A stretch of DNA of 64,000 nucleotides from Planctomycetaceae bacterium (lineage in GTDB: Bacteria; Planctomycetota; Planctomycetia; Planctomycetales; Planctomycetaceae), in the NCBI GenBank assembly GCA_041940305.1, contig JBGTSJ010000007.1:1-64000 (forward strand). The letters are read 5' to 3'. The notes under the pieces were generated by a model that saw only the letters and a program-made list of their open reading frames with translations, made no database searches and had not been told where the DNA came from. The translations under genes were made by a program, and so were the position numbers. Position 1 is the stretch's first letter, and every line of letters begins with the position of its first letter. Positions 5,740 to 59,618 of the stretch are shown here, piece by piece.

Positions 5740-6687
5740 TCAGGCCGACAGTTCATCGCGCGCCCGCTCCAGCATCGTTTTCGTGCGACGGATGCCCTCG
5801 TACTCGTCGAGCTGGCCACCCTCGTACTCGATGCCGACGTAGCCGCGATACCCGGCATCCACCACGATCTTCATCATCTTGAGGTAGTCGATCTCGCGTT
5901 CTCCGGCGGTCGTGACGAGCGGACGGTCCTCGGGGAAGTCGTACGATTTCGCGCTCACGGCCTGGGCGAACGGCATGAGTTCCTCGACGCCTTTGTAGAC
6001 GTCGTACCACTCGCCGTTGCCGAGGTTGAAGTTGCCAAAGTCGGGGAGCGTGCCGCAGTGCGGGTGATCGACACGGCGCATCACGGACGCCAGCCATTCG
6101 CCGTTGGAAGAGAGGCCGCCGTGGTTCTCGACGATGACGTTGAGCTGATGGTCTTCGGCGAAGAGCGTGAGAGCGTGGAGTCCGTCGGCGGCGAGAGCGA
6201 GCTGCTCCTCGTACGTGCCACTGCTGGCCGCGTTGACGCGGATGGAGTGGCAGTTGAGGAAGGCGGCGGCTTCGACCCACTTCTTATGGTTGTCCACGGC
6301 CTCGCGACGCTTGGCCTCGTCGGGATCGCCAAGATGTCCCTCGCCGTCGCACATGATCAGCAGGCTGCGGACGCCGTGGTCCTCGCAGCGCTGCTTCATG
6401 TCCGCCAGGTACCCCTGGTCCTTCGCCTTGTCCTTGAAGAACTGGTTGACGTACTCGACCGCATCGATCCCGAATTCCTCCTTCGCCGTCTTCGCGAAGT
6501 CGAGGTGGTCCAGCTTGCCGCCGAAGATCTCCTTGTTGAGCGACCATTCCGCGAGAGAGATCATGTACAGCGGGTCTTTGTCCGCGGCGCGGGCGGAAAG
6601 ACCTGCGGCGGACAGGGATGCGGCGCCGGCGAGCGCGGCGGATGTCTGCAGGAAGTCGCGACGGTTGTATTGGGCGGGCATGGACAC
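5740..6687 (-). CDS. Sugar phosphate isomerase/epimerase (xylose-isomerase-like TIM barrel) with a Tat signal peptide
   Basis: The N-terminus RRDFLQTSAALAGAASLSAAGLSA is a twin-arginine signal. The body is a TIM-barrel AP-endonuclease-2 / xylose-isomerase-like fold (...IRVNAASSGTYEEQLALAADGLHALTLFAEDHQLNVIVENHGG...). Confidence 0.8.
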   Translation of the reverse strand: MSMPAQYNRRDFLQTSAALAGAASLSAAGLSARAADKDPLYMISLAEWSLNKEIFGGKLDHLDFAKTAKEEFGIDAVEYVNQFFKDKAKDQGYLADMKQRCEDHGVRSLLIMCDGEGHLGDPDEAKRREAVDNHKKWVEAAAFLNCHSIRVNAASSGTYEEQLALAADGLHALTLFAEDHQLNVIVENHGGLSSNGEWLASVMRRVDHPHCGTLPDFGNFNLGNGEWYDVYKGVEELMPFAQAVSAKSYDFPEDRPLVTTAGEREIDYLKMMKIVVDAGYRGYVGIEYEGGQLDEYEGIRRTKTMLERARDELSA

Positions 6688-7105: not shown

Positions 7106-7723
7106 ATGATGGATATTCTTCAGCAGTGGTTCTCGTGGCCGACACTGCCGTTCTCAGTGTTGTTGACGGCGGTAGTTGGCTACTGGCTGATGGTGATTGT
7201 CGGCGCGTTTGACCTCGACTTTCTGGACTTCGACCTGGACGTCGAACCCGGCCTGGACGGCCACGAATCGGTGTTTGACTGGGGCCTGGTCGGCCTCAGG
7301 TGGTTCAACCTCGGCGATGTGCCGTTGATGGTGTGGGTCAGCGCGTTCGCACTGCCGGCGTGGCTGGCATCGACCGCATTCGACAAGCGACTGGCGGACC
7401 CGACAACGCAGGAGATCATCGTCGCGGTGCTGCGGGACATCGGCATCGGCCTGGTGGCGGCGAAAGTCATCACCACGCCGCTGAAAGGCAAACTCAAACT
7501 GGTCGAGCCGAACCTCGTGGAAGACATGATCGGCCGGTCCTGCGTGATAACCAGCCTGCAGGCGACGCCTGACTTCGGACAGGCCCAATGTCAGGCCGAG
7601 GGAGCACCGTTAATGCTCAACGTCCGGGCGGTCGAGGGAGCGATCCCCAAAGGAGAACGAGCCGAAATCGTCGACTACTCCGCCGAACAGCGGGTGTACT
7701 TCGTACGCAGCCAGTCGGTTTAG
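7106..7723 (+). CDS. YqiJ-like inner-membrane protein with a C-terminal NfeD-type OB-fold (DUF1449-like)
   Basis: About 206 aa. It has N-terminal TM helices with an acidic loop (DLDFLDFDLDVEPGLDGHE) and a C-terminal beta-rich segment, GRSCVITSLQATPDFGQAQCQAEGAPLMLNVRAVEGAIPKGERAEIVD. The ATG at 7106 is preceded by GGAGGGGG. A flotillin gene follows immediately, matching the yqiJ-yqiK arrangement. Confidence 0.62.
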   Translation: MMDILQQWFSWPTLPFSVLLTAVVGYWLMVIVGAFDLDFLDFDLDVEPGLDGHESVFDWGLVGLRWFNLGDVPLMVWVSAFALPAWLASTAFDKRLADPTTQEIIVAVLRDIGIGLVAAKVITTPLKGKLKLVEPNLVEDMIGRSCVITSLQATPDFGQAQCQAEGAPLMLNVRAVEGAIPKGERAEIVDYSAEQRVYFVRSQSV

Positions 7724-7744
7724 AACCCATCACTGAAAAAGAGA

Positions 7745-7825
7745 GGCCACGGATGACGCGGATTGGACGGATTCACGCAGATCAGATCCGCGTAAATCCG
7801 TCCAATCCGCGTCATCTGCGGCCCC
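7745..7825. repeat. Family-1 palindromic element, copy A, 81 bp
   Basis: GGCCACGGATGACGCGGATTGGACGGATT-CACGCAGATCAGATCCGCGTA-AATCCGTCCAATCCGCGTCATCTGCGGCCCC, a near-perfect hairpin about 30 bp long between yqiJ-like and flotillin. Confidence 0.9.
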
Positions 7826-7879
7826 TTTGAAACGAATCAGCCAATCCCATCTCACGAGTTCTGACTCGGGCTTGAAACC

Positions 7880-9964
7880 ATGGAATACATCGTCGGCGGT
7901 ATCATCGGTCTGTTCATCCTCTTCGGCCTGCTGATCCTGATCTCGCGGTTCTACCGCAAGGTCGGCCCGGAAGAGGCGCTGATCATTACCGGCGTCGGCG
8001 GACTGCGGGTCGCCACCGGGCGCGGGACGATCGTGATTCCGATCGCTCACCGCGCGGAGCAGATGGACCTGTCGGTCAAGCGGATCGAGATCGCCCGCCG
8101 CGGCGAGTCGGGACTGATCTGCCGCGACAACATCCGGGCCGATATCGAGGTCGCGTTCTTCGTCCGCGTGAACAACACGCGCGAGGACATTCTGCAGGTG
8201 GCTCAGTCACTGGGCTGCCGTCGGGCGAGCGAGCACCAGGCACTGGTCGAACTGTTCGACGCCAAGTTCTCCGAGGCCCTGAAGACCGTCGGCAAGCACT
8301 TCGATTTCGTCGACCTCTACACTGAGCGGGACAAGTTCAAGGACGAGATTCTCAAGCACATCGGGACAGACCTCAACGGCTACATTCTCGACGACTGCGC
8401 GATCGACTACCTCGAGCAGACGCCAGTCGAGAAGCTGAGCGCGAACAACATCCTCGACGCCGAGGGTATCAAGAAGATCACCGAGTTGACGGCCCGAGAG
8501 CACGTCCGCTCGAACGAGATCACGCGCGAAAAAGAGAAGACGATCAAGAAGCAGGACGTCGAGGCGCAGGAAGCGATCCTGGAGCTGGAGAAGCAGCGCG
8601 TCGAGGCGGTCGAGAAGCAGAAGCGGGAGATCGCGGAGATCACGGCCCGCCAGCACGCCGAGGCGGCCAAGGTGCAGCAGGAAGAGCGGCTCAAGTCGGA
8701 ACGGGCCCGCATCACGACCGAGGAAGAGGTGGAGGTCGCGACGCAGAACAAGGACCGCCAGGTCATTGTTGCACAGCGAAACAAGGAACGCACCGACGCC
8801 GTCGAGCGCGAACGCGTGGAGAAGGACCGGCAGCTCGAAGTGACCGAGCGCGAGCGGATCGTCGGCCTCGCCCAGATCGACAAGGAAAAGGCGATCGAAG
8901 TCGAGAAGCGGAACATCCAGGAGGTGATCCGCGAACGGGTGACCGTCGAACGGACGGTGGTCGAAGAACAGCAGAAGATCAAGGACACCGAGGAGTTCGC
9001 CACGGCGGACCGCGAGAAGCAGGTCAAGATCACGCTCGCCGAGATGGCGGCCCAGGAGTCGTTGGTCAAAGAGATCAAGGCAGCCGAGGCGGCCAAGCAG
9101 TCGGCCGAATTCGTGGCTCAGCAGATGGTGATCGAAGCCGAGGCGGAGCGGCAGGCGGCCGAGAAGCAGACTGCGGCCAAGAAAATGCTGGCCGAGGCTG
9201 TGCAGGCCGAGACCGCCGCCACCGGACTCGCCGAAGCGCAGGTGATCCTCGCAAAGGCCGATGCCACCGAGAAGCAGGGAACGGCCGAAGCGGTCGTCAT
9301 CCAGAAGAAGCTGGTTGCCGAAGCCGAAGGTCATAAGGCGAAGGCGGACGCCGTCCAGAAGCTGGGCCTGGCGGAAGCCGACGTCATGCACCAGAAGTTC
9401 TCCGCCGAAGCCCGCGGCATCGAGGAGAAGGCCGAAGCGATGAAGCTGTTCGACGGCGTGGGCCGCGAGCACGAAGAGTTCAAGCTGCGGCTGAACAAGG
9501 ACAAGGACATCGAGATTGCCGCGATCTCCGCGCAGGAAGAGATCGCCAAGAGCCAGGCGGACATCGTCGGCAAGGCGCTGCAGACGGCCCGCATCGACAT
9601 CGTCGGCGGCGAGACGGAGTTCTTCGACAAGATTGTCGACTCGGTCAAAGCCGGCAAGGCGGTCGACCGCTGGGTCTACAACAGCGACGTGTTGAGCGAC
9701 GTGAAGAACACGTTCTTCAACGGCGAGTCGAACGGCGACTTCCGCTCGAGCCTCAGAAAGTTCACGGACCACTTCGGGATGAGCTTCGAGGACGTGAAAG
9801 ACATGACCGTCACGGCCCTGCTGGCGAAGTTCATGCTGCAGGCCGACGACGACGCGACGACCAGCGCACTCAAACGACTGCAGCGCGTGGTGCAGTCAGC
9901 GGGAGTCAGCGACAAGAAGGTGGCGTCCCTGGGAATCGGGGCGGCGGAGCAGTCGCATGCTTGA
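7880..9964 (+). CDS. Flotillin / SPFH (band-7) family protein, YqiK-like
   Basis: 694 aa. N-terminal TM anchor MEYIVGGIIGLFILFGLLILISRFYRKVGPEEALIITG. An SPFH domain and a long E/A/K/Q-rich coiled-coil flotillin repeat region follow. Confidence 0.9.
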   Translation: MEYIVGGIIGLFILFGLLILISRFYRKVGPEEALIITGVGGLRVATGRGTIVIPIAHRAEQMDLSVKRIEIARRGESGLICRDNIRADIEVAFFVRVNNTREDILQVAQSLGCRRASEHQALVELFDAKFSEALKTVGKHFDFVDLYTERDKFKDEILKHIGTDLNGYILDDCAIDYLEQTPVEKLSANNILDAEGIKKITELTAREHVRSNEITREKEKTIKKQDVEAQEAILELEKQRVEAVEKQKREIAEITARQHAEAAKVQQEERLKSERARITTEEEVEVATQNKDRQVIVAQRNKERTDAVERERVEKDRQLEVTERERIVGLAQIDKEKAIEVEKRNIQEVIRERVTVERTVVEEQQKIKDTEEFATADREKQVKITLAEMAAQESLVKEIKAAEAAKQSAEFVAQQMVIEAEAERQAAEKQTAAKKMLAEAVQAETAATGLAEAQVILAKADATEKQGTAEAVVIQKKLVAEAEGHKAKADAVQKLGLAEADVMHQKFSAEARGIEEKAEAMKLFDGVGREHEEFKLRLNKDKDIEIAAISAQEEIAKSQADIVGKALQTARIDIVGGETEFFDKIVDSVKAGKAVDRWVYNSDVLSDVKNTFFNGESNGDFRSSLRKFTDHFGMSFEDVKDMTVTALLAKFMLQADDDATTSALKRLQRVVQSAGVSDKKVASLGIGAAEQSHA

Positions 9965-9972
9965 TCGAAAGA

Positions 9973-10056
9973 GGGGCCACTGATGACGCGGATCTGGCGG
10001 ATTCTCGCGGATAGAATCTGCGTAAATCCGCGTCATCCGTACCATCTGCGGCCCCC
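9973..10056. repeat. Family-1 palindromic element, copy B (left boundary of GxxExxY cassette 1)
   Basis: GGGGCCACTGATGACGCGGATCTGGCGGATTCTCGCGGAT...AATCTGCGTAAATCCGCGTCATCCGTACCATCTGCGGCCCCC. Confidence 0.9.
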
Positions 10057-10073
10057 TTTGACGGGAGACTCCT

Positions 10074-10496
10074 ATGCCCAGCGACAAGCTCCTCCACGCC
10101 GACCTCACCGACGCGATCATCAAGTCGTTCTATCACGTCTACAACACGCTCGGCTTCGGCTTCCTCGAAAAGGTCTACGAGAACTCGATGGCAATCTCGC
10201 TGAGAAACGCCGGCCTGTTCGTCGTGCCCCAGATGCCGGTGGAGGTGTACTTCGAGAAACTGCGGGTCGGCACCTACTGCGCGGACCTGCTGGTTTCGAA
10301 CCTGGTCATCGTCGAGATCAAATCCGTCGAGAACCTGCACCCCGCACACGAGGCTCAGCTGATCAACTACCTGAAAGCCACTGATATCGAAGTCGGCCTG
10401 CTGCTCAACTTTGGCGAGAAACCTGAGTTCCGGCGCAAGGTTTTCAGCAACGAACGCAAGCAGCACCGAGTCGTCCCCAAAGGAGACCACGGATGA
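10074..10496 (+). CDS. GxxExxY family protein (PD-(D/E)XK nuclease-like fold)
   Basis: The motif G-F-L-E-K-V-Y-E-N is present. It is a paralog of ORF 56988..57449 with a shared core: ...ADL(I/L)V...V(I/V)VE(I/L)KS(V/A)E...HEAQL(I/V)NYL(K/R)ATDIEVGLLLNFG.KP...RKVF(S/T)N. The last codons (...VPKGDHG*) are encoded inside the right-hand palindromic repeat. Confidence 0.78.
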   Translation: MPSDKLLHADLTDAIIKSFYHVYNTLGFGFLEKVYENSMAISLRNAGLFVVPQMPVEVYFEKLRVGTYCADLLVSNLVIVEIKSVENLHPAHEAQLINYLKATDIEVGLLLNFGEKPEFRRKVFSNERKQHRVVPKGDHG

Positions 10497-10564
10497 CGCA
10501 GATGACGCGGGTTCTCGCTGATCCGCGAAAATCCGCCAGATCCGCGCCATCCGCGGTCCCCCCT
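10486..10564. repeat. Family-1 palindromic element, copy C (right boundary of GxxExxY cassette 1)
   Basis: ACCACGGATGACGCAGATGACGCGGGTTCTCGCTGATCCGCGAAAATCCGCCAGATCCGCGCCATCCGCGGTCCCCCC. Confidence 0.9.
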
Positions 10565-10567
10565 TGA

Positions 10568-13500
10568 ATGCCCGATCCCACTCCCCAACCCGATGCCGCT
10601 CCGCAGCTGGAAGGCGGCACTTATGAGATCATCCGCAACCGGTTGCGGGGGTACGGGGAGGAGCTGCGCGCGCGACTGTCGCGGCTGAACGCGGCGCGGA
10701 AGGATGTCTTCGGGTCGATCGACGTCAAGCTGCTGGCGACCGAGCGGATCACGACGGAGCACAACTGTGTCCCGCGGGATATGGCGGCCGTCGGGGACCG
10801 GTTTCTGTTCGGGTACAACGTGCACTTCGGGCTGAAAACCGAGCGGCACATCGCCGACGTCTTCGCTGCATATGAGTTCCGGCGTCCCGGCGGTGAGAGC
10901 GGCGAAGCTTCTGCAGAGGCCCACGGGTTGCAGCCGGTAGGCTTCGATGTGCTGGGTCTCAACGACCCGCGGTTCGAGAAGGACCTGCAGGACGTTTACC
11001 GTTACTACAAGAACGCCACGTTCGCGCAGTTCGTGCATCGCGGGCCGCACCTGTTCATGGTGTTTCAGGTCGGCCGCTCGCCGCTGGACGTCAAAACGTT
11101 TAAATGGCTGCTGCGGCCCGAAGGCCTGCAGTATCTCGACAACCGCAGCGACCACGAGGTCCGCCCGCCGCCGCAGCACGAGTTTGAATGGATCCGCTGC
11201 ACGCGCGACATGCATCGGCAGGGAGTTCACCCGCACATCTCTATCGAAGACCGCCTGTTCGTGGAGACAGTCGGCGGCGACCTGACCATCAAGATCGAGA
11301 ACAATACCGACTCGGGGCAGGGGATCTACTCCGAACCGGTCGACAACGCCGACCAGACGCTCGACGACGCCGAGACCTATTACGCGATCGTCGGCAACCT
11401 GATCCTGCTGAAGATCAAGCCGTACCAGGAGGCGCGGTTCCGCTATATCGTCTACAGCGAAAAGATCGAGCAGGCCCGCCGGCTCGACGCCATTGAGCAG
11501 GCGTGCGTGCTGCTGCCCGATGATCACGGGCTCATCTTCTCCAGCGGCTACTTCCTGCAGTCGGGGGAGTACAAGACTTTTGACAGCGCTCATACCGGGC
11601 TGCTGTTTGAGCGGCGGATTGCCAGCCCCAACGGCGAGGACACGCTCTTTGTGTTCCATCAGCCGCAGTCGGGGGATTACGTGCTGCTCGGCTACAACAT
11701 GATCGAGCAGAAGGTCGAGACGCCGGTCGTGTGCAACGGCTTCACGCTGTTTCACGCCGGCGAGATGCTGCAGTTCAAGGTGCAGCCGGAGCCCCAGAAG
11801 CACCACGCCGTGCAGGTCTGGCAGACTCCCTACGTCGGTGAAAACTACGTGCCGCCGACGAACTCCGATTCCTACCTGTACAAGATCGGCAATCGCGACA
11901 TCGTCCGCGGCATGGCCGAATGCCAGGCGATTCTCAAGCTGATCGACAAAGAGGATTCGTACTCCGGCCTGTATGTCGATCTTGTCAAACTGACGACCGA
12001 CGTCCTCGACTCCTACTTCTGGATCGGACACGCGGGGGCCGAGAACCTGGCAGAGCCGCTGGCGCAGATCCGCGACGCCGCGCGATCGGCCGTGGATGAG
12101 TTCGAGAAGGTTGTCCGCGTCCGCAAGAACACTGCCGAACAGACGCAGCAGGTCCAGCAGAAGACGCGGGCTCTGCTGTCGGAAGTGCATCGCGCCCGGT
12201 TCGACGCGATCGACGGCTTCGTGAGATCACTCGCCGGCCTGCGGGGCATCCGCGGTGAGATCATCGGCCTGAAGGAATTGCGGTACGTCGATCTCCCGAC
12301 CGTCGAGGGTCTGGAACAGGAGGTCACTCAGGAGACGGAGCGGCTGTCGCATCGCTGCGTCGAGTTCCTGCTCAGGCCGGATGCACTGCAGCCCTACGCC
12401 GACAAGGTCGCCGATGAGCAGGCGGCGATCGAAGGCCTGCAGAAAGTCAGCGAAGCGAAAAAGCAGGCGGAGCGGATCGGCGCATCGGCGACCGAGCTGG
12501 AGATGCTGATCGAGATCGTCTCGAACCTGAAGATCGACGACGCCACGCAGCGAACCGCCATCATCGACGGCATCTCGGCGGTCTTCACCAAGGTCAACAC
12601 CGCGCGGGCTGCGCTCAAGCGGAAGATGCAGGAGCTGGCTTCGGTCGAAGGGGCGGCCGAGTTCGGCTCACAGCTCAAGCTGCTCAACCAGTCGGTCGTC
12701 AACTTCCTCGACGTCTGCGACGCCCCGCAGAAGTGCGAAGAGTACCTCACCAAGCTGATGGTGCAGGTCGAGGAACTCGAGGGGAAGTTCGCCGAATTCG
12801 ACGAATTCGTGGTCCAGCTCGCCGAGAAGCGGGACGAAATCTACAACGCGTTCGAGACCCGACGGCTGCAGCTGGTCGAAGCCCGCAACAAGCGGGCCGG
12901 CGCCCTTGCGTCCGCGGCCGACCGCATCCTCAAGGGGATCAAGTCCCGCGTCGACGGGCTCGAATCGGTCAACGACATCCACGGCTACTTCGCCGGGGAC
13001 CTGATGATCGAAAAGGTCCGCGACATCGTGCGGCAGCTGGACGGCCTCGGCGACAGCGTCAAGGTGGACGACATCCAGTCGCGGCTGAAGACGATCCGCG
13101 AAGACGCCGTCCGCCAGCTCAAGGACAAGCAGGAGCTGTACGAAGATGGCGAGAACGTTATCAAGTTCGGCAAGCACCGCTTCTCAGTGAATACACAGGT
13201 GCTGGACCTCACCACCGTTCAGCGCGACGGCGACCTCTGCCTGCACCTTACCGGCACCGACTTCTACGAGCCGCTCAACAATCCCGAGATCGACGCCCTC
13301 GATGACGTCCGTGACATGGAAGTCGTCAGCGAGAACCGGGACGTGTACCGCGCCGAGTACCTGGCGTACCAAATCCTGAGCACGGCCCGCACTAACGACG
13401 AGAGCCCGTTTATCCGCGACCCGAAGGGGAGCGCGGCCCCGCGCGATCTCGATTCCCTCACGGCCGAAGTCCAGCGCTTCATGGCCCCGCGCTACAGCGA

Positions 13501-16204
13501 AGGCTACACGAAGGGGGTCCACGACCACGATGCCGCCCTTCTGTTGCAGGCATTGCTCGAGATCGACGCGACCTGCGGCCTGCTCCGCTACTCGTCGCTG
13601 GCCCGCGCCGTCGCCCGCCTGTTCTGGGAGTACTTTGCCGACAAGCGGGTCAAAACCCTGATGGGGGCGCGCCTCGCGGGCTTCGGCGCCGTCGCACAGG
13701 CCTTCCCCGGGACCACGCAGCAGGCCGAGTACATCGAAGAGCTGCAGGAAATGCTCGCCGCGTTTTTGGCGGAAGTCGATCTCTTTGGTAGCCCGTCGCG
13801 TCAGCAAGGGCCGAGTACTCCACCCGACGCCGACTCCAAATCCCCCTCGCTTGCGCGTCGGGCTAGCGTTGACGACGCCCTCGCCGGCGAAGCCGCTGAG
13901 TACCTGTTCTACGAGCTGACCACCGGCGACACGTTCGCTGTCAGCCAGGCGGCCGCCGACCTGGTCCGCGAGTTCAAGGAACACCTCCACGTCCACGGCC
14001 GGAGTGAGCGGTTCACCGAGTCGCTGCACTCGCTGCAGAAAGCCACCGCGCCGGCCTTTGAACTCATCCGGGACTGGGTACGCGCGTATGTCGACTCCCG
14101 GAGCGCGACCCACGATTACGTCGACGAAGCGTCCGTTTGTCTCCTCGCCGGTTCCATCGACGAGCGGCGCATCGTCGCCGCAGAGACCGATCGGGAGATC
14201 AACGGCCTGGCCGGCACGCATCCGGCCATCGCGGGAGGCCGTTACTCACTGAACTTCAACCGCTTCCTGCACAAGCTGGCCGCGTTCGAACGGGACGTGG
14301 TGCCGCGATTTCAGCGTTATCACCATCTCAAGACCGAGATCGTGGACGACGCCCGCAGCGAGATGAAGCTGAACGAGTTCAAGCCGCGGGTGTTGACGTC
14401 CTTCGTCCGCAACAGGCTGATCGACACCACTTATCTTCCCCTGATTGGCGACAACCTTGCCAAGCAGGTCGGCACCGCCGGCGAGCAAAAGCGGACCGAC
14501 CGGCAGGGCCTGCTGCTGCTCATCTCCCCCCCCGGCTACGGCAAGACGACGCTGATGGAGTACGTCGCCAACCGGCTGGGGATCATATTCATGAAGATCA
14601 ACGGCCCGGCCCTCGGCCACGAGGTGAAGTCGCTCGACCCGCAGGCCGCTCCCAATGCCGGCGCCCGTGAGGAGGTCGAAAAGCTCAGCCTTGCGTTCGA
14701 GATGGGGGACAACGTGATGATCTATCTGGATGACATTCAGCACTGTCATCCGGAGTTCCTGCAGAAGTTCATCTCGCTCTGCGACGCCCAGCGGAAGGTC
14801 GAAGGCGTCTACAAGGGGCACACCCGCACGTACGACTTCCGCGGCAAGAAGGTCTGCGTGGTGATGGCGGGGAACCCGTACACCGAGAGCGGCGAGAAGT
14901 TCAAGATCCCCGACATGCTCGCCAACCGGGCCGACATCTATAACCTTGGCGAGATCATCGGCGACAGCGGGGCCGCATTCGAGATGAGCTATCTCGAGAA
15001 CGCCCTCACGTCGAATCCCGTACTCGCCCGTCTCGCGTCCCGCAGCCGCGGCGACGTGCAGGCCGTCATCCAGATGGCCGAACGTGCCCGCACCCGGGCC
15101 GACGGCTCCGCCGTCAGCGCCCCCGAGAACCTGGCGGCGCTCACCGAGGGCATCGACCTCGAAGGGACGTACCCGCTCGACGAACTCGGCGAGTACGTCA
15201 ACACGATGATCAAGCTGCTTCGCGTGCGCGACGTCGTACTGACGATGAACAAGGAGTACATCAAGTCGGCCGCCACGCACGACGACTATCGCACCGAGCC
15301 GCCGTTCCTGCTGCAGGGCTCCTACCGCAACATGAACCGCATCGCCGAGAAGGTGCTGCCGGTTATGAACGTGCAGGAACTGGAGACGCTCATCGTCTCC
15401 AGCTACCAGAACGACGCGCAGACCCTTACCAGCGGCACGGAGTGGAACCTGCTCAAATTCAAGGAGCTGCTGGGCAAGCTGACCCCTCAGGAACAGGAGC
15501 GCTGCGAAGACATCCGCCGCACGTTTCGGCAAAACGTCAAGCTACGCGGCGTCGGCGCCGACGACAAGGTCGGCCTCGTCATCGCTCAGCTCTCGACGTT
15601 TGCGGACGGCCTAGACTCCATCCGCAAGGCCGTGACCACCGGTGTCGGCCAGCTTACCGACCGCAACGGCCACGACGACCACATCGCCGCCGCCGTCAAT
15701 AAGATCGAAGCGCTCAATACAGGGCTTACGTCACTCTCGGAACGGATCAACGATGGCCTGGCCCAGATCGCGCGTCTCGCCGATCGGCCCATTGAAATCG
15801 ACGTGCCGCCCATCGACGTTAAGTGGCCCGAAACGCTGCCCGCCGCACTCTCTGACCGATCAGCGGGCGGACAAAGTGCCCCCGCTGTCACACAGGCCGC
15901 ACCGGCCGAGAACAGGCCGATTGTCCGCGACGCGACCGACGCCGACGACGACCAGGGCGACGACTCCTCTCGACCCGACCGCATCACCGTCGTCAACCGC
16001 CTCCCGCGATCGGTTCTCAACGTGATGGAGCAGCAGTTCCAGCTCATGAACGGCTGGATGAAACCGGTCCTGGAGCTGACCGCCCAGCAGCGAACCGAAA
16101 TGGCCGAACTGCGGCCGATGATCGAGGAATGCCTCCGCCATTACCGCTCTCTCCTCCGCAAACTCGAAGAAGCCCACGACCGCGACGCGCCCTCCCAGGC
16201 CTAA
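10568..16204 (+). CDS. Giant 1878-aa protein with a single MoxR/dynein-related AAA+ (AAA_5-like) module; function unknown
   Basis: Walker A LLLISPPGYGKTTLMEYVANRLG at about aa 1295. Walker B plus the MoxR-like segment VMIYLDDIQHCHPEFLQKFISLCDAQRKVEGVYKGHTRTYDFRGKKVCVVMAGNPYT parallels MoxR's LLLADEINRATPKTQSALLETMQEGTVT...PFFVMATQNP. An Arg finger is in IPDMLANRADIYNLGE. An N-terminal region of about 1290 aa and a C-terminal region of about 450 aa have long coiled-coil stretches and no catalytic motif I can recognise. Confidence 0.85.
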   Translation: MPDPTPQPDAAPQLEGGTYEIIRNRLRGYGEELRARLSRLNAARKDVFGSIDVKLLATERITTEHNCVPRDMAAVGDRFLFGYNVHFGLKTERHIADVFAAYEFRRPGGESGEASAEAHGLQPVGFDVLGLNDPRFEKDLQDVYRYYKNATFAQFVHRGPHLFMVFQVGRSPLDVKTFKWLLRPEGLQYLDNRSDHEVRPPPQHEFEWIRCTRDMHRQGVHPHISIEDRLFVETVGGDLTIKIENNTDSGQGIYSEPVDNADQTLDDAETYYAIVGNLILLKIKPYQEARFRYIVYSEKIEQARRLDAIEQACVLLPDDHGLIFSSGYFLQSGEYKTFDSAHTGLLFERRIASPNGEDTLFVFHQPQSGDYVLLGYNMIEQKVETPVVCNGFTLFHAGEMLQFKVQPEPQKHHAVQVWQTPYVGENYVPPTNSDSYLYKIGNRDIVRGMAECQAILKLIDKEDSYSGLYVDLVKLTTDVLDSYFWIGHAGAENLAEPLAQIRDAARSAVDEFEKVVRVRKNTAEQTQQVQQKTRALLSEVHRARFDAIDGFVRSLAGLRGIRGEIIGLKELRYVDLPTVEGLEQEVTQETERLSHRCVEFLLRPDALQPYADKVADEQAAIEGLQKVSEAKKQAERIGASATELEMLIEIVSNLKIDDATQRTAIIDGISAVFTKVNTARAALKRKMQELASVEGAAEFGSQLKLLNQSVVNFLDVCDAPQKCEEYLTKLMVQVEELEGKFAEFDEFVVQLAEKRDEIYNAFETRRLQLVEARNKRAGALASAADRILKGIKSRVDGLESVNDIHGYFAGDLMIEKVRDIVRQLDGLGDSVKVDDIQSRLKTIREDAVRQLKDKQELYEDGENVIKFGKHRFSVNTQVLDLTTVQRDGDLCLHLTGTDFYEPLNNPEIDALDDVRDMEVVSENRDVYRAEYLAYQILSTARTNDESPFIRDPKGSAAPRDLDSLTAEVQRFMAPRYSEGYTKGVHDHDAALLLQALLEIDATCGLLRYSSLARAVARLFWEYFADKRVKTLMGARLAGFGAVAQAFPGTTQQAEYIEELQEMLAAFLAEVDLFGSPSRQQGPSTPPDADSKSPSLARRASVDDALAGEAAEYLFYELTTGDTFAVSQAAADLVREFKEHLHVHGRSERFTESLHSLQKATAPAFELIRDWVRAYVDSRSATHDYVDEASVCLLAGSIDERRIVAAETDREINGLAGTHPAIAGGRYSLNFNRFLHKLAAFERDVVPRFQRYHHLKTEIVDDARSEMKLNEFKPRVLTSFVRNRLIDTTYLPLIGDNLAKQVGTAGEQKRTDRQGLLLLISPPGYGKTTLMEYVANRLGIIFMKINGPALGHEVKSLDPQAAPNAGAREEVEKLSLAFEMGDNVMIYLDDIQHCHPEFLQKFISLCDAQRKVEGVYKGHTRTYDFRGKKVCVVMAGNPYTESGEKFKIPDMLANRADIYNLGEIIGDSGAAFEMSYLENALTSNPVLARLASRSRGDVQAVIQMAERARTRADGSAVSAPENLAALTEGIDLEGTYPLDELGEYVNTMIKLLRVRDVVLTMNKEYIKSAATHDDYRTEPPFLLQGSYRNMNRIAEKVLPVMNVQELETLIVSSYQNDAQTLTSGTEWNLLKFKELLGKLTPQEQERCEDIRRTFRQNVKLRGVGADDKVGLVIAQLSTFADGLDSIRKAVTTGVGQLTDRNGHDDHIAAAVNKIEALNTGLTSLSERINDGLAQIARLADRPIEIDVPPIDVKWPETLPAALSDRSAGGQSAPAVTQAAPAENRPIVRDATDADDDQGDDSSRPDRITVVNRLPRSVLNVMEQQFQLMNGWMKPVLELTAQQRTEMAELRPMIEECLRHYRSLLRKLEEAHDRDAPSQA

Positions 16205-16340
16205 GGGGGCCGCGGATCAGCGCGGATCGCTAAGCCAAGCTGTAAGTCCAGCCGTGTTGACAACACCTGAGCTGCAAATCGAGGAGGGACCTGGCGGCGC
16301 CCGGAATCCGCGCGAATCCGCCCATTCCGCGTCATCCGCG
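16205..16340. repeat. Family-1 palindromic element, copy D, 136 bp with a roughly 65-bp non-palindromic core
   Basis: Arms GGGGGCCGCGGATCAGCGCGGATCGC and GGAATCCGCGCGAATCCGCCCATTCCGCGTCATCCGCGGCCCCCCC. It lies between the giant ATPase stop and the GGDEF gene. Confidence 0.9.
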
Positions 16341-17168
16341 GCCCCCCTTTCCCGCCCCGTGTGGCTCCTGCTCGTCATCGAAGCCGCACTCGTCACGGCT
16401 TGCACCGCCCTCCTGGGCACACTGGCCGGTCTCCCTCTCGTTGCCGTCGCGCTCTGCGCCCCGCAGATCGTCGCCGCCGCCTGGATCGCCGGGACCCGCC
16501 CCGCACTGGTGCTGACGTTCGGCTCCGCATGCGGCTGGTATCTTCCGGCCATTTCGTACCGGGGAGTTGACCACGCGGCCGTCGATCTGCCATCAGCCGT
16601 GATCGGCACCGCGGTCCTCATCGCCTTCACGCTGCTGGTCCAGAAGTGGAAGGAGTCCATCCGCCGCGCCCATGAAGCGGCCGAAACGGACCCACTGACC
16701 GGTCTGCTCAATCGCCGCGGCTTCCTGGCGCGCGTCGAAGCCGAACGCAATCGCAGTCAGCGGAGCGGTGCACCGCTCGCCGTCGCCTTCCTCGACTGCG
16801 ACCGCTTCAAGGAGCTCAACGACACCCGCGGCCATCAGACGGGAGACCGCCTGCTGATCGCGACCAGCGAAGTGCTGCGGGCGAACGTCCGCAACTACGA
16901 CAGCGTGGCCCGGCTCGGAGGCGACGAATTCGCCGTGCTCTTGCCGGATGTCGAAGAGGCCGGCGCCTGTGCCGCCTCCGACCGTCTGCTCACGGCGCTG
17001 CACGCGGAGATGACCCGGCAAGGATGGCCCGTCACCTTCAGTATCGGCGTCGCCGTCTTCGCGAGGCCGCAGGCGACGACCGAGATGATCGCCGCGGCCG
17101 ACGCCGCGATGTACGAAATCAAACGCTCCGGCCGAGCCGCCGTCCGGGTCACCGTCATCAATAGCTGA
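16254..17168 (+). CDS. Membrane-anchored GGDEF-domain diguanylate cyclase; the real start is probably GTG near 16361
   Basis: 2-3 TM helices (WLLLVIEAALVTACTALLGTLAGLPLVAVALCA...) are followed by a GGDEF domain with DPLTGLLNRRGF, the active-site RLGGDEFAVLL and the I-site-like LLIATSEV. The first 35 codons of the ORF are a translation of palindromic repeat 16205-16340. Confidence 0.82.
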   Translation: MLTTPELQIEEGPGGARNPRESAHSASSAAPLSRPVWLLLVIEAALVTACTALLGTLAGLPLVAVALCAPQIVAAAWIAGTRPALVLTFGSACGWYLPAISYRGVDHAAVDLPSAVIGTAVLIAFTLLVQKWKESIRRAHEAAETDPLTGLLNRRGFLARVEAERNRSQRSGAPLAVAFLDCDRFKELNDTRGHQTGDRLLIATSEVLRANVRNYDSVARLGGDEFAVLLPDVEEAGACAASDRLLTALHAEMTRQGWPVTFSIGVAVFARPQATTEMIAAADAAMYEIKRSGRAAVRVTVINS

Positions 17169-17336: not shown

Positions 17337-18176
17337 CTACTTGAACATCAGGTCGTCCGGCTGCGGCAGGTCTTCCAGTTCCGCAAGCCCGAACAACTCG
17401 AGGAACCGCCCGGTCGTGCGATACCGCACCGCGTCGTTGTCGGTGGACCGCTCCAGCTCGATCAGCTCCCGCCGCAGCAGTTGCCGCAGCAGCGCCCCCG
17501 CATTCGGCTTGCCGGTCGCTTCGATCGTCTCCTTGTCCACCGGCTGCTGGTACGCGACGAGCGCCAGAATCTCCAGCGCGTCCTGCGAGAGTTTCACGTC
17601 CTTCGGCCCCAGTCCGTACACGCGGTTCCGGACCGGTTCGAACTCCGGCGAAAGCTCCAGCCGATACCCGCCGGATCCCAGCCGCACCTCGTAGGGCCGC
17701 CCCTCCTGCTGGTACTGTCGGTTCAGTTCTTCAATCAGTTCATCCACCTGCTCGTGATCAAACCCGCCGCCGAGCAGATCCGCCAGACGTTTGCCCGTCA
17801 GCGGCTCTCCTCCGACGAACAGCAGCGCCTCCAGCACCTGCCGTGGAGTGACGGCCGGCGAGCCCTGCTCCGGTTCCGCCACCGCCGGCCCGGTCTCTGA
17901 CGCCACACCCGTGAAGTCCGATTCCCTTGGACCCCCGGTCGCATCGGCGGCGAAGACATCCCCCGATACTGGCTCCTCCTCGACTGCGTCGCCGATCTCC
18001 GCCGTCAGCTGCAGATCGGCGAATTCGGCGGCCTCCAGGGCGCGCAGGTACGCCGCCTCCAGATCCTCCGGCGACCAGTCGCACCCCTCATCCCGTGTAA
18101 CGCCCGTGAGCATCGCGCCGGCCTCGGCCGGCTCGATGATCGCGCGGAACGGCGTGTCGTCGCCGGAGTGGGACAT
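17337..18176 (-). CDS. scpB: Segregation and condensation protein B (ScpB)
   Basis: Tandem winged-helix ScpB signatures: RQVLEALLFVGGEPLTGKRLADLL and ILALVAYQQPVDKETIEATGKPNAGALLRQLLRRELIE. Confidence 0.82.
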   Translation of the reverse strand: MSHSGDDTPFRAIIEPAEAGAMLTGVTRDEGCDWSPEDLEAAYLRALEAAEFADLQLTAEIGDAVEEEPVSGDVFAADATGGPRESDFTGVASETGPAVAEPEQGSPAVTPRQVLEALLFVGGEPLTGKRLADLLGGGFDHEQVDELIEELNRQYQQEGRPYEVRLGSGGYRLELSPEFEPVRNRVYGLGPKDVKLSQDALEILALVAYQQPVDKETIEATGKPNAGALLRQLLRRELIELERSTDNDAVRYRTTGRFLELFGLAELEDLPQPDDLMFK

Positions 18177-34853: not shown

Positions 34854-34863
34854 GAGGCACGAA

Positions 34864-35094
34864 GGGGGTACGCAGATGACGCAGATGCAGAGGATTGACG
34901 CAGATGCTGCGCAGGTCTTGAAGGACGGCAGAAACACTAATAGCCGCTAATCTACGCTAATTCCTGCATGAGTGTCGATTAGCGGTGATTAGCGTTCCCC
35001 TCTTCGCTTTTTTTTCCATCCCGTCGTTCGCTGTCCGCCGTCACCTCTTGAAATCCGCGTCAATCCGCCCCATCCGCGTCATCCGCGGCCCCCC
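34864..35094. repeat. Family-1 palindromic element, copy E, 231 bp, with nested internal inverted repeats
   Basis: Arms GGGGGTACGCAGATGACGCAGATGCAGAGGATTGACGCAGATGC and GAAATCCGCGTCAATCCGCCCCATCCGCGTCATCCGCGGCCCCCC. The core carries CCGCTAATC...GATTAGCGG inverted repeats. It overlaps the last 11 codons of the PVC dehydrogenase gene. Confidence 0.9.
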
Positions 35095-45924: not shown

Positions 45925-45965
45925 GGGCCGCGGATGACGCGGATCGGGGGGATTGACGCAGATCT
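45925..45965. repeat. Family-1 half-copy F (left arm only)
   Basis: GGGGCCGCGGATGACGCGGATCGGGGGGATTGACGCAGATC, located directly after the stop of the coiled-coil gene. No recognisable right arm is present. Confidence 0.8.
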
Positions 45966-46014
45966 GGACAGGGCGGCACGCGGGGACGCGGGTGACCGGC
46001 AGATCGTGGGGATC

Positions 46015-54991: not shown

Positions 54992-56005
54992 ATGCCCAAT
55001 AACTCCGCTGATCTTGACGCGCTCCAGCATGAAGCTGAGGACTTTCGTAAGACTTTTGCCGCCTGCCGGGCGGAGGTTGGCAAGTTGATTGTCGGCCAGG
55101 AGCGGGTTGTCGAATGCTCGCTGACGGCCATCTTTGCCGGCGGCAACGTGCTGCTGGAAGGTGTGCCGGGGCTCGGCAAGACGGAGCTGGTGAAGGCGAT
55201 GGGGCAGGTGCTGGACCTGGACTTCCGGCGGATCCAGTTCACGCCCGACCTCATGCCGGCCGACATCATCGGCACGAACATCATGCAGACGGATGAGCAT
55301 GGCCGGTATCAGTTCGAGTTCCGGCAGGGGCCGATCTTCACCCAGCTGCTGCTGGCGGACGAGATCAACCGGGCGACGCCGAAGACACAGTCGGCGCTGC
55401 TGGAGACCATGCAGGAGGGAACGGTCACCACGGCCGGCCAGCACTTCAAGCTCAAGCAGCCGTTCTTCGTGATGGCGACGCAGAACCCGATCGAGCAGGA
55501 AGGGACGTACCCGCTTCCGGAGGCACAGCTGGACCGGTTCCTGTTCAAGGTGGATGTCCCGTTCGTTTCGCGGCAGGAGATGAACGAGATCGTCAGCCGG
55601 ACGATCCTGCGGAAGTCGGTGCAGCTGGAGAAGCTGCTCGACTCCGAGCGGATCCTGCATCTGCGCAGCGTCCTGCAGAAAGTGGTCGTGGCGGACCCGA
55701 TCCGCGATTTCGCCTGTCGTCTCGTGCTGGCGACGCATCCCAACACCGATTTCTCGACCGAATCGGTGAAGCGGTTCATCCGCTGGGGAGCCAGTCCGCG
55801 GGCGGCGCAGTCGCTGATCAAGGCGGCGCGGGTGCGGGCGCTCAGCCAGGGACGGGCCCACGTCGCGTTCGACGACATCCGTCACTTCGCCGACGAAGTC
55901 CTGCGGCACCGCACGCTGCTCAACTATGACGGCCAGGCGGAGAACGTGGTGGTGGGGGATCTCATCCGGGAATGCGTGACGGCACTGCCGGAACAGGCGG
56001 CGTAA
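54992..56005 (+). CDS. moxR: MoxR-family AAA+ ATPase
   Basis: GQERVVECSLTAIFAGGNVLLEGVPGLGKTELVKAMG...LLLADEINRATPKTQSALLETMQEGTVT...PFFVMATQNPIEQEGTYPLPEAQLDRF. Confidence 0.92.
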   Translation: MPNNSADLDALQHEAEDFRKTFAACRAEVGKLIVGQERVVECSLTAIFAGGNVLLEGVPGLGKTELVKAMGQVLDLDFRRIQFTPDLMPADIIGTNIMQTDEHGRYQFEFRQGPIFTQLLLADEINRATPKTQSALLETMQEGTVTTAGQHFKLKQPFFVMATQNPIEQEGTYPLPEAQLDRFLFKVDVPFVSRQEMNEIVSRTILRKSVQLEKLLDSERILHLRSVLQKVVVADPIRDFACRLVLATHPNTDFSTESVKRFIRWGASPRAAQSLIKAARVRALSQGRAHVAFDDIRHFADEVLRHRTLLNYDGQAENVVVGDLIRECVTALPEQAA

Positions 56006-56062
56006 TCAATTCGCCAACTACCGCACGATTTCAAGACTCGATCTCACCGGCACGCGACATTC

Positions 56063-57489: not shown

Positions 57490-57509
57490 TCTTCCGATCG
57501 ACGATCATC

Positions 57510-59426: not shown

Positions 59427-59446
59427 GGCGTAGGTCAGGGAAACAA

Positions 59447-59586
59447 GGCCGCGGATGACGCGGATCCGGCTGGTCTTCGCGGAGAACAAGAACGTCATGG
59501 ACCAGCGGTAATCGGCCGGCCACAAATCTCACCCCTGTCTGGATTCTGATCCGCGGAAATCCGCCTGATCCGCGTCATCCGCGGCC
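59447..59586. repeat. Family-1 palindromic element, copy H, 140 bp
   Basis: GGCCGCGGATGACGCGGATCCGGCTGGTCTTCGCGGAGAAC...GATTCTGATCCGCGGAAATCCGCCTGATCCGCGTCATCCGCGGCC. It lies between the batA-like stop and the next gene. Confidence 0.9.
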
Positions 59587-59618
59587 TCCTTTCACGTCGT
59601 TCGCAATCACCCCTTCCT

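Follow-up and report, generated by a model that had tools for sequence, protein, structure and literature searches.

In the yqiJK operon of E. coli and the yuaF-floT operon of B. subtilis, a small multi-TM gene of the NfeD type lies just upstream of the flotillin gene, and neither operon includes a giant ATPase. A larger assembly was described by comparative genomics by Ravi et al. [quoted passage not shown] PspA was also linked with band-7/FloT and NfeD neighbours by Popp et al. 2022, and the account of SPFH families by Hinderhofer et al. 2009 makes no mention of an ATPase partner. Searches of the literature for DUF3686, PF12458, DUF7902 or 'DNA repair ATPase' together with flotillin gave no result, and no experimental work was found.

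The 64-kb stretch of planctomycete DNA analysed here, referred to as the window, carries five open reading frames at 7106-17168, all on the + strand, and their coordinates in the original prediction were correct (Table 1). Three of these encode a YqiJ/NfeD-like protein, a flotillin-like protein and a giant ATPase, the same three core proteins, in the same order and with the same domain architectures, as in the operons that the relevant passages of Ravi et al. 2024 (PMC11237479) describe. What sets the window locus apart from the full operons is the lack of CesT/Tir, of PspA and of the divergent HTH regulator, neither PspA nor CesT being matched anywhere in the 64-kb window, and the presence of a GxxExxY cassette in the flotillin/giant spacer and of a GGDEF gene, specific to this lineage, after the giant gene. 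The locus is an abbreviated member of this operon class. As in the E. coli and B. subtilis operons, the NfeD-type gene immediately precedes the flotillin gene; unlike them, the locus has the giant ATPase, and its flotillin is divergent (694 aa). The original prediction, which knew of no flotillin partner resembling the giant protein, has been superseded on this point by the passages of Ravi et al. 2024 (PMC11237479) that report the partnership. The association of the flotillin with the giant ATPase was thus already published, and the present work confirms and extends it.

Table 1. Coordinates of the genes and repeats at the locus (nucleotide positions in the window) and of the parts of the giant ATPase (residue numbers).
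Feature	Position	Strand or place	Remarks
YqiJ/NfeD-like gene	7106..7723	+	first gene of the unit; ATG at 7106/7109; 204-205 aa
Palindromic repeat, complete copy without cargo gene	7738..7831	NfeD/flotillin spacer	nhmmer E=6e-29
Flotillin-like SPFH gene	7880..9964	+	ORF, 694 aa
Left repeat of GxxExxY cassette	9967..10061		palindrome match, E=2e-29
GxxExxY gene	10074..10496	+	ORF, 140 aa; cassette cargo, not a core member
Right repeat of GxxExxY cassette	10478..10566		palindrome match, E=5e-24
Giant ATPase gene	10568..16204	+	ORF, 1878 aa
Split pair of repeat arms	16202..16350		just past the stop codon of the giant gene
GGDEF gene	16254..17168	+	ORF; N-terminal membrane segments; lineage-specific neighbour
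N-terminal helix, then predicted β-propeller	residues ~54-420	giant ATPase	DUF3686
Coiled-coil/helical stalk	residues ~436-855	giant ATPase	includes DUF7902
Small β domain	residues ~864-902	giant ATPase	
Helical domain	residues ~930-1260	giant ATPase	invariant KGVHDxDA motif
AAA+ module	residues ~1300-1580	giant ATPase	one module
AAA+ residues	K1326; D1388-D1389; N1436; R1454	giant ATPase	Walker A (GYGKT); Walker B; sensor-1; arginine
C-terminal helical domain, disordered linker, terminal long helix	linker, residues ~1741-1813; terminal helix, residues 1814-1872	giant ATPase	

The YqiJ/NfeD-like protein has hydrophobic segments at residues 11-39, 73-91 and 102-122 and a soluble C-terminal domain. 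Its match to YqiJ_N was weak and sub-threshold (E=0.084); the same model matched 14 of 35 orthologues (best 3.6e-8), and Pfam NfeD matched five of the 35 (E 0.02-0.1). When a profile of the orthologues was searched against the PDB, the sole match was the NfeD domain of YuaF (2k14, E=0.23), in the correct region. The three segments, taken with the orthologue matches, correspond to the YqiJ/YuaF-type 3-TM protein of the published operon class.

The flotillin-like protein has a single hydrophobic segment (residues 1-26) that forms an N-terminal anchor, a divergent SPFH domain, a long Glu/Ala/Lys-rich coiled coil and a C-terminal region; the anchor and the long coiled coil are held in common with the E. 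coli YqiK / B. subtilis FloT type. The NCBIfam FloT model matched residues 9-305 (E=9.7e-9) with 34.8 bits, against an equivalog cut-off of 700. Pfam, Band_7 included, gave no match to the window protein even at E<=10, and Band_7 matched just two of 27 flotillin orthologues (best 7e-14). A direct PDB sequence search with the protein alone gave no match, and the profile of its orthologues found QmcA alone (E=0.0013), within the coiled coil. The homologues are named flotillin family, YqiK or SPFH in the source databases. The N-terminal segment, the FloT profile, the Band_7 matches of the orthologues and the Glu/Ala/Lys-rich repeats all agree with the flotillin of the published class. The window protein would belong to a divergent SPFH clade, its homology being supported transitively, and the SPFH and NfeD assignments rest on orthologues and on sub-threshold profile matches, no curated threshold having been reached by the window proteins themselves.

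It was originally proposed that the AAA+ module was the only recognisable part of the giant protein and that some 1700 residues were coiled coil or unassigned. Both statements were wrong, as Pfam identified DUF3686 (residues 32-484, E=3.1e-188) and DUF7902 (residues 605-689, E=6.8e-28). AlphaFold2 models (pLDDT ~80) gave a β-propeller, a helical stalk and the AAA+ module; the input was 92 planctomycete-type sequences, none of them less than 52% identical to the modelled fragment, so that covariation depth was limited. For the helical domain in the middle of the protein (residues 900-1260), a profile search of the PDB returned no match even at E<=10. No TM segment is present in the giant protein, compared with one hydrophobic segment in the flotillin and three in the NfeD-like protein. 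Across 19-77 diverse homologues there is no variation at the Walker A, Walker B, sensor-1 and arginine residues, which implies that the protein is probably an active ATPase under selection. The Walker B motif ends in Asp-Asp rather than in the usual Asp-Glu, so that slow or regulatory hydrolysis is conceivable.

The description of this module as MoxR-type stood at the level of the predicted fold and not at that of the profile. In the models the AAA+ core adopts a MoxR-like fold, with MoxR-family NorQ and CbbQ as its closest structural neighbours, but the Pfam MoxR model, AAA_3, scored 15.6 bits, short of its cut-off of 27, and covered the P-loop only. A true MoxR protein encoded elsewhere in the window (54992-56005) scored 211 bits with AAA_3. 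Members of the MoxR family (NorQ, CbbQ, RavA and the MoxR of Bat operons) differ from the giant protein, in which the module sits inside an 1878-aa multidomain protein and has no VWA/MIDAS partner in the operon; no gene for such a partner was found beside the giant gene in the window or among its conserved neighbours at 83 loci.

Direct PDB sequence searches with the giant protein gave generic P-loop matches only (p97, RuvB), and RuvB had the lowest Foldseek E-values. The Foldseek result would suit a DNA-repair ATPase whose adjacency to a flotillin gene is functionally meaningless, as would the databases, in which Pfam calls DUF3686 'ATPase involved in DNA repair' and the NCBI name of the homologues is 'DNA repair ATPase'. 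We find this hardly credible. No DNA-binding or nuclease domain was detected in the giant protein by Pfam, NCBIfam or PDB profile searches, and no literature on a repair function was found.

The gene neighbourhood of the homologues of the giant protein, an analysis proposed with the original prediction, was examined in related loci from at least five phyla, the groups listed being Planctomycetota, Verrucomicrobiota, Bacteroidota, Desulfobacterota, Phycisphaerae and Clostridia. Among the 67 loci with 2.3 kb or more of DNA upstream, a flotillin gene lay directly upstream of the giant gene, on the same strand, in 64; the giant gene was without an adjoining flotillin gene in the other three (L016, L024 and L028). 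Flotillin identity ranged from 36% to 81%. Fifty-six loci also had a YqiJ/NfeD-like gene, in each case ahead of the flotillin gene and co-oriented with it, so that a conserved, co-oriented adjacency of three genes was found. Downstream of the giant gene there was no conserved gene among 83 loci. Each core gene occurs as a single copy and is highly conserved, and the flanks consist of housekeeping genes that differ by lineage; since the flanking genes vary among relatives, the triad is the conserved unit. The gene order strongly supports the view that the NfeD-like, flotillin-like and giant genes form one conserved operon. The claim that the three genes are one unit split by a mobile cassette was borne out, both by the synteny (64/67) and by the turnover of cargo in the spacer that is described below. 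What the analysis shows is the gene content, the synteny, the domain architecture and the turnover of the cassette.

The GGDEF gene, by comparison, is not part of this unit. Its product is a diguanylate cyclase (GGDEF match, E=1.3e-40) and had been counted with the system, a suggestion that was abandoned because none of the other 83 loci has it as a conserved neighbour. The sole GGDEF match in those loci, in L056, lies ~5.6 kb downstream of the giant gene and is not adjacent to it. The annotated start of the gene at 16254 falls inside a repeat, and an in-frame GTG at 16359 is a more plausible start. The split pair of repeat arms at 16202-16350 probably marks the 3' boundary of the conserved unit. 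Beyond the GGDEF gene is a convergent ScpB gene (17337-18176), and on the other side of the locus the gene upstream of the YqiJ/NfeD-like gene (5740-6687) is on the minus strand.

The spaces between the genes are occupied by copies of a dispersed, REP-like palindrome of ~90 nt. For the complete copy without cargo, in the NfeD/flotillin spacer, the predicted RNA hairpin has a folding energy of -67.6 kcal/mol (z=-13.4), and no U-tract comes after it. The GxxExxY cassette is flanked by two imperfect palindromes of ~90 nt each, in which the left repeat folds at -54.2 kcal/mol (z=-7.3) and the right repeat at -46 kcal/mol (z=-6.3); the outer arm of the left repeat (9968-10012) is 84% complementary to 10521-10565, and the tandem sub-repeats of the cassette are GATGACGCG / GATCTGGCG and so on. 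The 3' end of the GxxExxY ORF overlaps the right repeat by 19 nt, and this repeat stops 2 nt ahead of the ATG of the giant gene. Further split or half copies occur in the window at 34862-35096, 45920-45968 and 59445-59592, together with a weak one at 57447-57492, and the 12-mer core of the repeat was observed 14 times in the 64-kb window against an expectation of 1.0. The palindromes were considered as cassette-specific boundaries, a possibility that was rejected as copies also occur at other places in the window and where there is no cargo. Because the repeats also occur singly, REP-like elements would fit better than integron/attC-like cassettes. Rfam contained no credible family for the repeats, the lone sub-threshold match to a plant miRNA being due to chance. 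A sigma-70 promoter scan returned 0 promoters, and terminator-like sites were no commoner in an intrinsic terminator scan than expected from shuffled sequence. The hairpins between the triad genes are strong and could attenuate transcription in this strain. The GxxExxY cassette is co-oriented with its neighbours, so co-transcription is probably not abolished.

The spacer between the flotillin and giant genes is 603 nt long, nearly all of it cassette (9967-10566). It had been supposed that the spacer would be ~10 bp without the cassette; the arithmetic was sound, in that ~5-11 nt lie outside the element, but the native spacer in relatives that have no insert is 38-300 nt. The cassette ORF is, by its profile matches, a clear member of the GxxExxY / PDDEXK_3 family of the PD-(D/E)XK nuclease superfamily (PDDEXK_3, PF13366, E=5.2e-39, 133.7 bits, cut-off 22; TIGR04256, E=1.2e-37, 128.8 bits, cut-off 35). 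The spacer was empty (38-300 nt) in 36 loci, those of the L085 or L001/Symmachiella type being examples, and contained assorted small selfish genes in 28; the cargo was GxxExxY in eight loci and elsewhere consisted of DUF559, IS200-like, ParE or zeta-toxin genes. In the close relative L084, in which the giant protein is 88% and the flotillin 94% identical to the window proteins, a zeta-toxin-like gene replaces GxxExxY, and a related repeat half-arm also abuts the ATG of the giant gene. The flotillin/giant spacer is an insertion hotspot, a recurrent landing site.

Two readings of the GxxExxY gene were weighed against this turnover. In the other loci (1.52 Mb searched in addition to the window), every match, in seven loci, is immediately upstream of the giant gene and co-oriented with it, as is the copy at the present locus, and among Verrucomicrobiota the identity of GxxExxY (52-59%) varies roughly in step with that of the giant protein (61-79%), which fits long retention; such a pattern would be expected if the gene were a functional, optional accessory of the operon and not a selfish insertion. 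This is nevertheless improbable, since 1) the gene is missing from most loci, decayed in three and swapped for unrelated cargo in L084, 2) the copy at the locus is closer to a second copy in the window (56988-57449), located within an unrelated MoxR-DUF58-BatA operon (56% identical), than to its positional counterpart in L002 (44%) and 3) each intact copy except that of L033 is flanked by its own inverted repeats. The GxxExxY gene would instead have come in secondarily, with a small mobile cassette that inserted into a recurrent landing site.

The bracketing of GxxExxY genes by inverted repeats and their recurrent site upstream of the giant gene are observations of the present analysis. The literature on GxxExxY consisted of incidental mentions only, and nothing was found in it on mobility or site preference.

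The same cargo raises the question of an anti-phage or conflict system, in which the triad would be a membrane sensor or effector driven by a large NTPase with a propeller sensor and the adjoining nucleases and toxins would belong to it. Conflict systems often include large ATPases with fused β-propellers and coiled coils, and PD-(D/E)XK nucleases, ParE and zeta-toxin-like genes do recur in the spacer beside the giant gene. However, the inserted genes are variable and often decayed (L039, L060 and L082), the core genes, as noted above, are conserved and single-copy between housekeeping flanks that differ by lineage, and PspA, which is encoded in the full form of the operon, is a protein of the envelope-stress response. 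Moreover, the PADLOC models gave no meaningful match, only trivial ones to a P-loop (IetA, E=0.0037) and to a Cas4-like protein (E=0.0085). A conflict system is therefore considered very improbable.

The full CesT/Tir-PspA form was found in 14-18 Bacteroidota loci, where the orthologous triad is downstream of the dyad (CesT_Tir_1, E=1e-56; PspA_IM30, E=9e-41) and a divergent HTH regulator is also present. The position of CesT/Tir and PspA directly upstream of the triad would be explained if the giant ATPase acted mainly on polymers of the PspA/ESCRT-III family, as a Vps4-like disassemblase, with the flotillin and NfeD-like proteins serving only to recruit it to damaged membrane; the abbreviated operons would then depend on PspA encoded elsewhere in the genome. 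We consider this rather unlikely as the main role.

The reading that we favour, and hold to be reasonably probable, is that the locus is an abbreviated membrane-stress or membrane-remodelling operon, with an NfeD-like protein, a flotillin scaffold and a giant MoxR-like AAA+ remodeller, into which GxxExxY was secondarily inserted. The three triad genes would be transcribed together. The flotillin, anchored by its single N-terminal segment, would presumably oligomerise through its coiled coil to form a membrane-attached scaffold or cage like those of the solved SPFH proteins, and the flotillin/NfeD pair would mark or enclose a patch of the cytoplasmic membrane. The giant protein would be soluble, with the propeller and the stalk for docking and recognition and a presumably hexameric AAA+ module. 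For the triad proteins we infer a physical interaction, an oligomeric state, a substrate and a role in stress as follows: the giant protein would dock on the flotillin/NfeD patch via its propeller and stalk and would spend ATP on the assembly, remodelling or disassembly of the flotillin lattice or of clients that the lattice retains, which may include PspA/ESCRT-III-like polymers in the lineages that have them.

By analogy, this role would parallel that of Vps4 on ESCRT-III, NSF on SNAREs and FtsH inside HflK/C cages. HflK/C-FtsH, in which an SPFH scaffold and an AAA+ ATPase work as a pair at the inner membrane, is the clearest precedent for the proposed mode, although FtsH is a membrane-embedded classical AAA protease, whereas the giant protein, without TM segment or protease domain, combines a MoxR-like core with a propeller and a stalk. 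In ESCRT-III/Vps4 and PspA/IM30, a membrane-bound polymer or scaffold is likewise coupled to a dedicated AAA+ remodeller, as may be the case here, and PspA is physically linked to the triad in Bacteroidota. A more specific form of the proposal is put forward only tentatively, namely that the giant protein is the dedicated ATP-driven assembly/disassembly motor of the flotillin cage, Vps4/NSF-like and docked by its propeller and stalk, and that the spacer is a conserved landing pad for exchanged, hairpin-bounded cassettes that exploit operon read-through.

The new elements of this work are a planctomycete example, a residue-level domain map of the giant protein and a quantitative measure of the synteny (64/67). 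One spacer repeatedly captures small nuclease or toxin cassettes, and its cargo differs even between relatives with 88-94% identical proteins, observations that are relevant to small mobile elements and to REP-like repeats. The function and control of bacterial flotillin assemblies are still debated. The original suggestion of an uncharacterised, membrane-microdomain-associated ATPase machine is supported by the conserved flotillin/NfeD-like surroundings. A giant AAA+ protein that is genetically locked to the flotillin/NfeD pair in hundreds of species from several phyla is, more obviously than any other protein, a candidate for the energy-consuming partner that flotillin has been missing. If the motor proposal is true, bacterial flotillin microdomains would acquire an active, energy-dependent turnover cycle.

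The genes for the YqiJ/NfeD-like protein, the flotillin-like protein and the giant AAA+ ATPase form a conserved, co-oriented three-gene unit, the triad. Since the upstream neighbour lies on the minus strand, the block begins near position 7106. The GC content of the region was 58-68%, and the composition was even except for a slight dip across the GxxExxY cassette, which occupies the spacer between the flotillin and giant genes. Judged by the names of homologues, the host belongs to the Planctomycetaceae.

Table. Features of the triad block and of related elements in the window.
Feature	Position	Strand	Remark
TAT-signal xylose-isomerase-like TIM-barrel protein	5740-6687	-	upstream neighbour of block
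YqiJ/NfeD-like protein	7106/7109-7723	+	ORF, 204-205 aa
Palindrome, complete, cargo-free	7738-7831		fills NfeD-flotillin spacer
Flotillin-like protein	7880-9964	+	ORF, 694 aa
Palindromes flanking cassette gene	9967-10061, 10478-10566		imperfect, ~90 nt each
GxxExxY protein, copy 1	10074-10496	+	ORF, 140 aa
Giant protein	10568-16204	+	ORF, 1878 aa
Helical domain and flanks, giant residues ~900-1260	13265-14344		invariant polar constellation
Walker B, giant D1388-D1389	14729-14734		Asp-Asp
Palindrome arm pairs	16202-16350, 34862-35096, 59445-59592		around 80-140 nt of unrelated sequence
GGDEF protein	16254-17168	+	ORF, 304 aa
ScpB	17337-18176	convergent	next gene past GGDEF gene
Further palindrome site	45920-45968
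MoxR-DUF58-BatA/VWA operon	54992-59426		canonical
GxxExxY protein, copy 2	56988-57449		co-oriented with MoxR operon
Inverted repeat around copy 2	56958-56988 / 57465-57495		31 nt

The giant protein belongs to a large family: its N-terminal 700 residues retrieved 992 clusters at 50% identity (E<=1e-3), and, with one genome per species, relatives turned up at no fewer than 584 of the 600 stretches that were examined after pattern matching. Eighty loci from Planctomycetota, Phycisphaerae, Verrucomicrobiota, Bacteroidota, Desulfobacterota and Clostridia were kept, and their neighbourhoods were compared by tblastn with the window proteins and by clustering of all ORFs. Of the 67 loci where the DNA upstream reached 2.3 kb or more, 64 had a flotillin gene (36-81% identity, median gap 237 nt) as the immediate same-strand predecessor of the giant gene, the exceptions being L016, L024 and L028. 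A YqiJ-like gene preceded the flotillin gene in 56 loci, co-oriented in every one. The original prediction of a three-gene operon therefore stands, and the possibility that giant homologues never adjoin SPFH or NfeD genes was decisively contradicted. In the three exceptional loci, as in L012 and L019, the ~5-8 kb ahead of the giant gene contained no flotillin gene; in L019 the immediate upstream neighbour of the giant gene is a DUF559 gene.

No conserved gene was found downstream of the giant gene among the related loci by either method, the sole GGDEF match being ~5.6 kb downstream in L056, and flanking genes varied even among fairly close relatives. The GGDEF gene, which had been proposed as part of the system, was excluded because it is not conserved at this position. 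The first 35 codons of its ORF, from the annotated start at 16254, lie within palindrome arms, and an in-frame GTG at 16359, just ahead of the first membrane segment, is the likelier start codon.

The triad is linked to PspA and CesT in one phylum: in 14-18 Bacteroidota loci it was preceded by genes for CesT_Tir_1 (E=1e-56) and PspA/IM30 (E=9e-41) proteins, with a divergently transcribed HTH regulator alongside. These loci are the operon of Ravi et al. (2024, mSystems 9:e00847-23, PMC11237479; bioRxiv 2020), whose supplementary table gives the identical gene order in Dokdonia donghaensis, and PspA with band-7/FloT and NfeD neighbours was also noted by Popp et al. (2022). Thus the association of flotillin with the giant protein, originally taken to be new, is real but was already a published comparative-genomics prediction (Ravi et al. 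2024), and will not surprise a specialist familiar with the PSP literature. No PspA or CesT gene was found within the 64-kb window, so the locus represents the abbreviated operon, the form without the CesT/Tir-PspA pair, of which it is a new planctomycete member. Very probably the triad represents a functional module that is conserved and of the kind already published. The alternative that the giant protein acts in a PspA-directed, Vps4-like role, for which the Bacteroidota pairing speaks, is considered unlikely.

The 603-nt flotillin-giant spacer consists of two palindromes around the GxxExxY/PDDEXK_3 gene. Folded as RNA, the palindromes give hairpins of high stability, at -46 to -68 kcal/mol (z -6 to -13), with no U-tract following them and no match to any Rfam family. 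The core is GGCCGCGGATGACGCGGAT...ATCCGCGTCATCCGCGGCC. The core 12-mer occurs 14 times in the window against about one expected, and three complete copies of the palindrome lie within the triad operon. A role as a cassette-specific boundary was rejected, since the cargo-free copy and the other window sites identify a dispersed REP-like element; the arm pairs that bracket unrelated sequence at three sites are MITE-like behaviour.

Of the loci in which the flotillin and giant genes are neighbours, 36 had a gap of 300 nt or less between them and 28 had a larger one with co-oriented small ORFs. Besides GxxExxY, the cargo included DUF559 endonuclease-like genes (L027, L029 and also L019), IS200-like Y1 transposases (L026, L041), a ParE toxin pair (L068), and DMP19, biotin-lipoyl and DUF3592 proteins. 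The 1.48-kb spacer of L003 (3814-5244; giant 73% identical) carries a 230-residue ORF without a Pfam match and an 89-residue zinc-ribbon-like ORF. In L084, a metagenomic relative, the flotillin shares 94% identity with that of the window and the N-terminus of the giant protein 88%. There a zeta-toxin/AAA_33 gene and a small ORF (12086-13015) replace GxxExxY, while a related half-repeat arm abuts the ATG of the giant gene, as in the window; such a difference between close relatives indicates quick cargo turnover. The spacer of L085 (74% identity) is empty (245 nt).

Six-frame translations of all 83 loci (about 1.46 Mb) and the window, 1.52 Mb in total, were scanned with a GxxExxY profile. Matches outside the window occurred in seven loci, all immediately upstream of the giant gene on the same strand: intact in the planctomycete L002 and in Verrucomicrobiota L033, L062 and L080, and decayed in Verrucomicrobiota L039, L060 and L082. 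Window copy 2 and the intact L062 and L002 copies are each bracketed by their own inverted repeats of short tandem sub-repeats. Those of L062 (29 nt, 97% complementary) and L002 are genome-specific, with sub-repeats of 8-9 nt. Among the intact copies outside the window, the scan for such repeats covered L062, L002 and L033, and it detected none at L033. Copy 2 interrupts the MoxR operon in a tight spacer. Copy 1 shared 56% identity with copy 2 but only 44% with the L002 copy at the corresponding site, although the giant proteins of these two loci were 71% identical, a pattern that argues for mobility rather than simple vertical descent. The identities within Verrucomicrobiota roughly follow those of the giant proteins, which suggests long retention there. 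Consequently, the mobile-cassette interpretation is supported by the cargo exchange in L084, the empty spacer of L085 and the GxxExxY identities, and it can be extended beyond the window, with the spacer recognised as a landing site where small cassettes of nuclease and toxin genes turn over fast. All eight GxxExxY insertions in this spacer were co-oriented with the operon, suggesting that read-through is tolerated or exploited. That GxxExxY is a functional accessory of the operon, a reading favoured by its orientation and retention but opposed by its replacement in L084, is distinctly improbable. A defence role for the triad is more doubtful still, with nuclease and toxin genes seen as changing cargo in the spacer.

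Two of the triad products are membrane-anchored: the YqiJ/NfeD-like protein has three hydrophobic segments, and the flotillin-like protein has one, at the N-terminus, and a long Glu/Ala/Lys-rich stretch. The third is soluble; the giant protein has no hydrophobic segment and is thus cytoplasmic. Alone, the window YqiJ/NfeD-like protein matched YqiJ_N weakly (E=0.084), while 14 of 35 orthologues from related loci matched YqiJ_N (best 3.6e-8) and 5 matched NfeD. In the PDB the orthologue profile matched one entry alone, 2k14 (E=0.23), the B. subtilis YuaF domain of NfeD type, and the match fell in the C-terminal region, as expected. The flotillin-like protein matched no Pfam family; its match to the FloT profile (E=9.7e-9) spans residues 9-305 and falls far short of the equivalog cut-off. 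Only 2 of 27 orthologues reached Band_7 (best 7e-14), and in public sources the relatives appear under the names flotillin family, YqiK or SPFH. Both labels were accepted, but the two proteins represent divergent clades mostly missed by curated models.

The giant protein had been thought to be mostly unassigned sequence, which is contradicted by Pfam matches to DUF3686 (residues 32-484, E=3.1e-188) and DUF7902 (605-689, E=6.8e-28); AAA, AAA_22 and AAA_5 matched at ~1311-1441. Databases call DUF3686 proteins 'DNA repair ATPase', a name for which no support was found, nor was any experimental study of a DUF3686 protein found in the literature; a true DNA-repair ATPase is scarcely credible. AlphaFold2 models of the two halves, from 92-sequence alignments, had a mean pLDDT of 81.4 (residues 1-960) and 79.8 (900-1878). 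The N-terminal half opens with a helix (16-48) and an all-beta domain (54-419), for which Foldseek returned beta-propellers (e.g. Elp1, ROD, prolyl oligopeptidases, WD40 proteins and the N-terminal domain of clathrin). Long helices then span ~420 residues (436-855) and lead to a small beta domain (864-902). In the C-terminal half, a helical domain (~930-1260) precedes the AAA+ module (~1300-1580), more helices, a disordered linker (~1741-1813) and a single long terminal helix.

The isolated module scored as a generic AAA+ by sequence (AAA 33.2 bits, AAA_22 29.8, AAA_5 28.7). The MoxR model AAA_3 gave 15.6 bits, below its cut-off of 27, whereas the genuine MoxR of the operon elsewhere in the window gave 211 bits; no VWA partner is present, and the lowest Foldseek E-values were to RuvB, with poor TM-scores. 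The earlier 'MoxR-type' designation thus holds in part: the fold is MoxR-like, but membership of the MoxR family is not demonstrable. The module keeps invariant catalytic residues, Walker A G1325, K1326 and T1327 together with N1436, R1454 and R1587 being unchanged across 19-77 diverse homologues. The Walker B is Asp-Asp in all of the 19-77 homologues examined, rather than the usual Asp-Glu, a possible sign that ATP hydrolysis is slow or regulated. The helical domain, which had no Pfam match and no PDB sequence match even by profile search, contains an invariant polar motif, KGVHDxDA (G983, D986, D988), with R1013 and H1218 (19-77 homologues). Together with E922, R928 and Y980, which are also invariant, these polar residues may form a catalytic or ligand-binding site.

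The flotillin would oligomerise, as in SPFH assemblies of solved structure, into a membrane-attached scaffold, and the NfeD-like protein would bind to it. The giant protein would hexamerise via its AAA+ module, dock via its propeller and stalk, and remodel or disassemble the scaffold or its clients, PspA polymers included where present. In function, HflK/C-FtsH and ESCRT-III-Vps4 come closest as precedents. This specific remodelling mechanism is tentative, at somewhat less than even chances, while the explanation as a whole, a conserved module with a remodeller, is on balance probable. To the published operon the present analysis adds quantitative synteny, the exclusion of the GGDEF gene, the recognition of the flotillin-giant spacer as a cassette landing site, and a domain-level model of the giant protein with its MoxR-like fold, Asp-Asp Walker B and invariant KGVHDxDA helical domain. 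The triad system bears on the role of bacterial flotillins.
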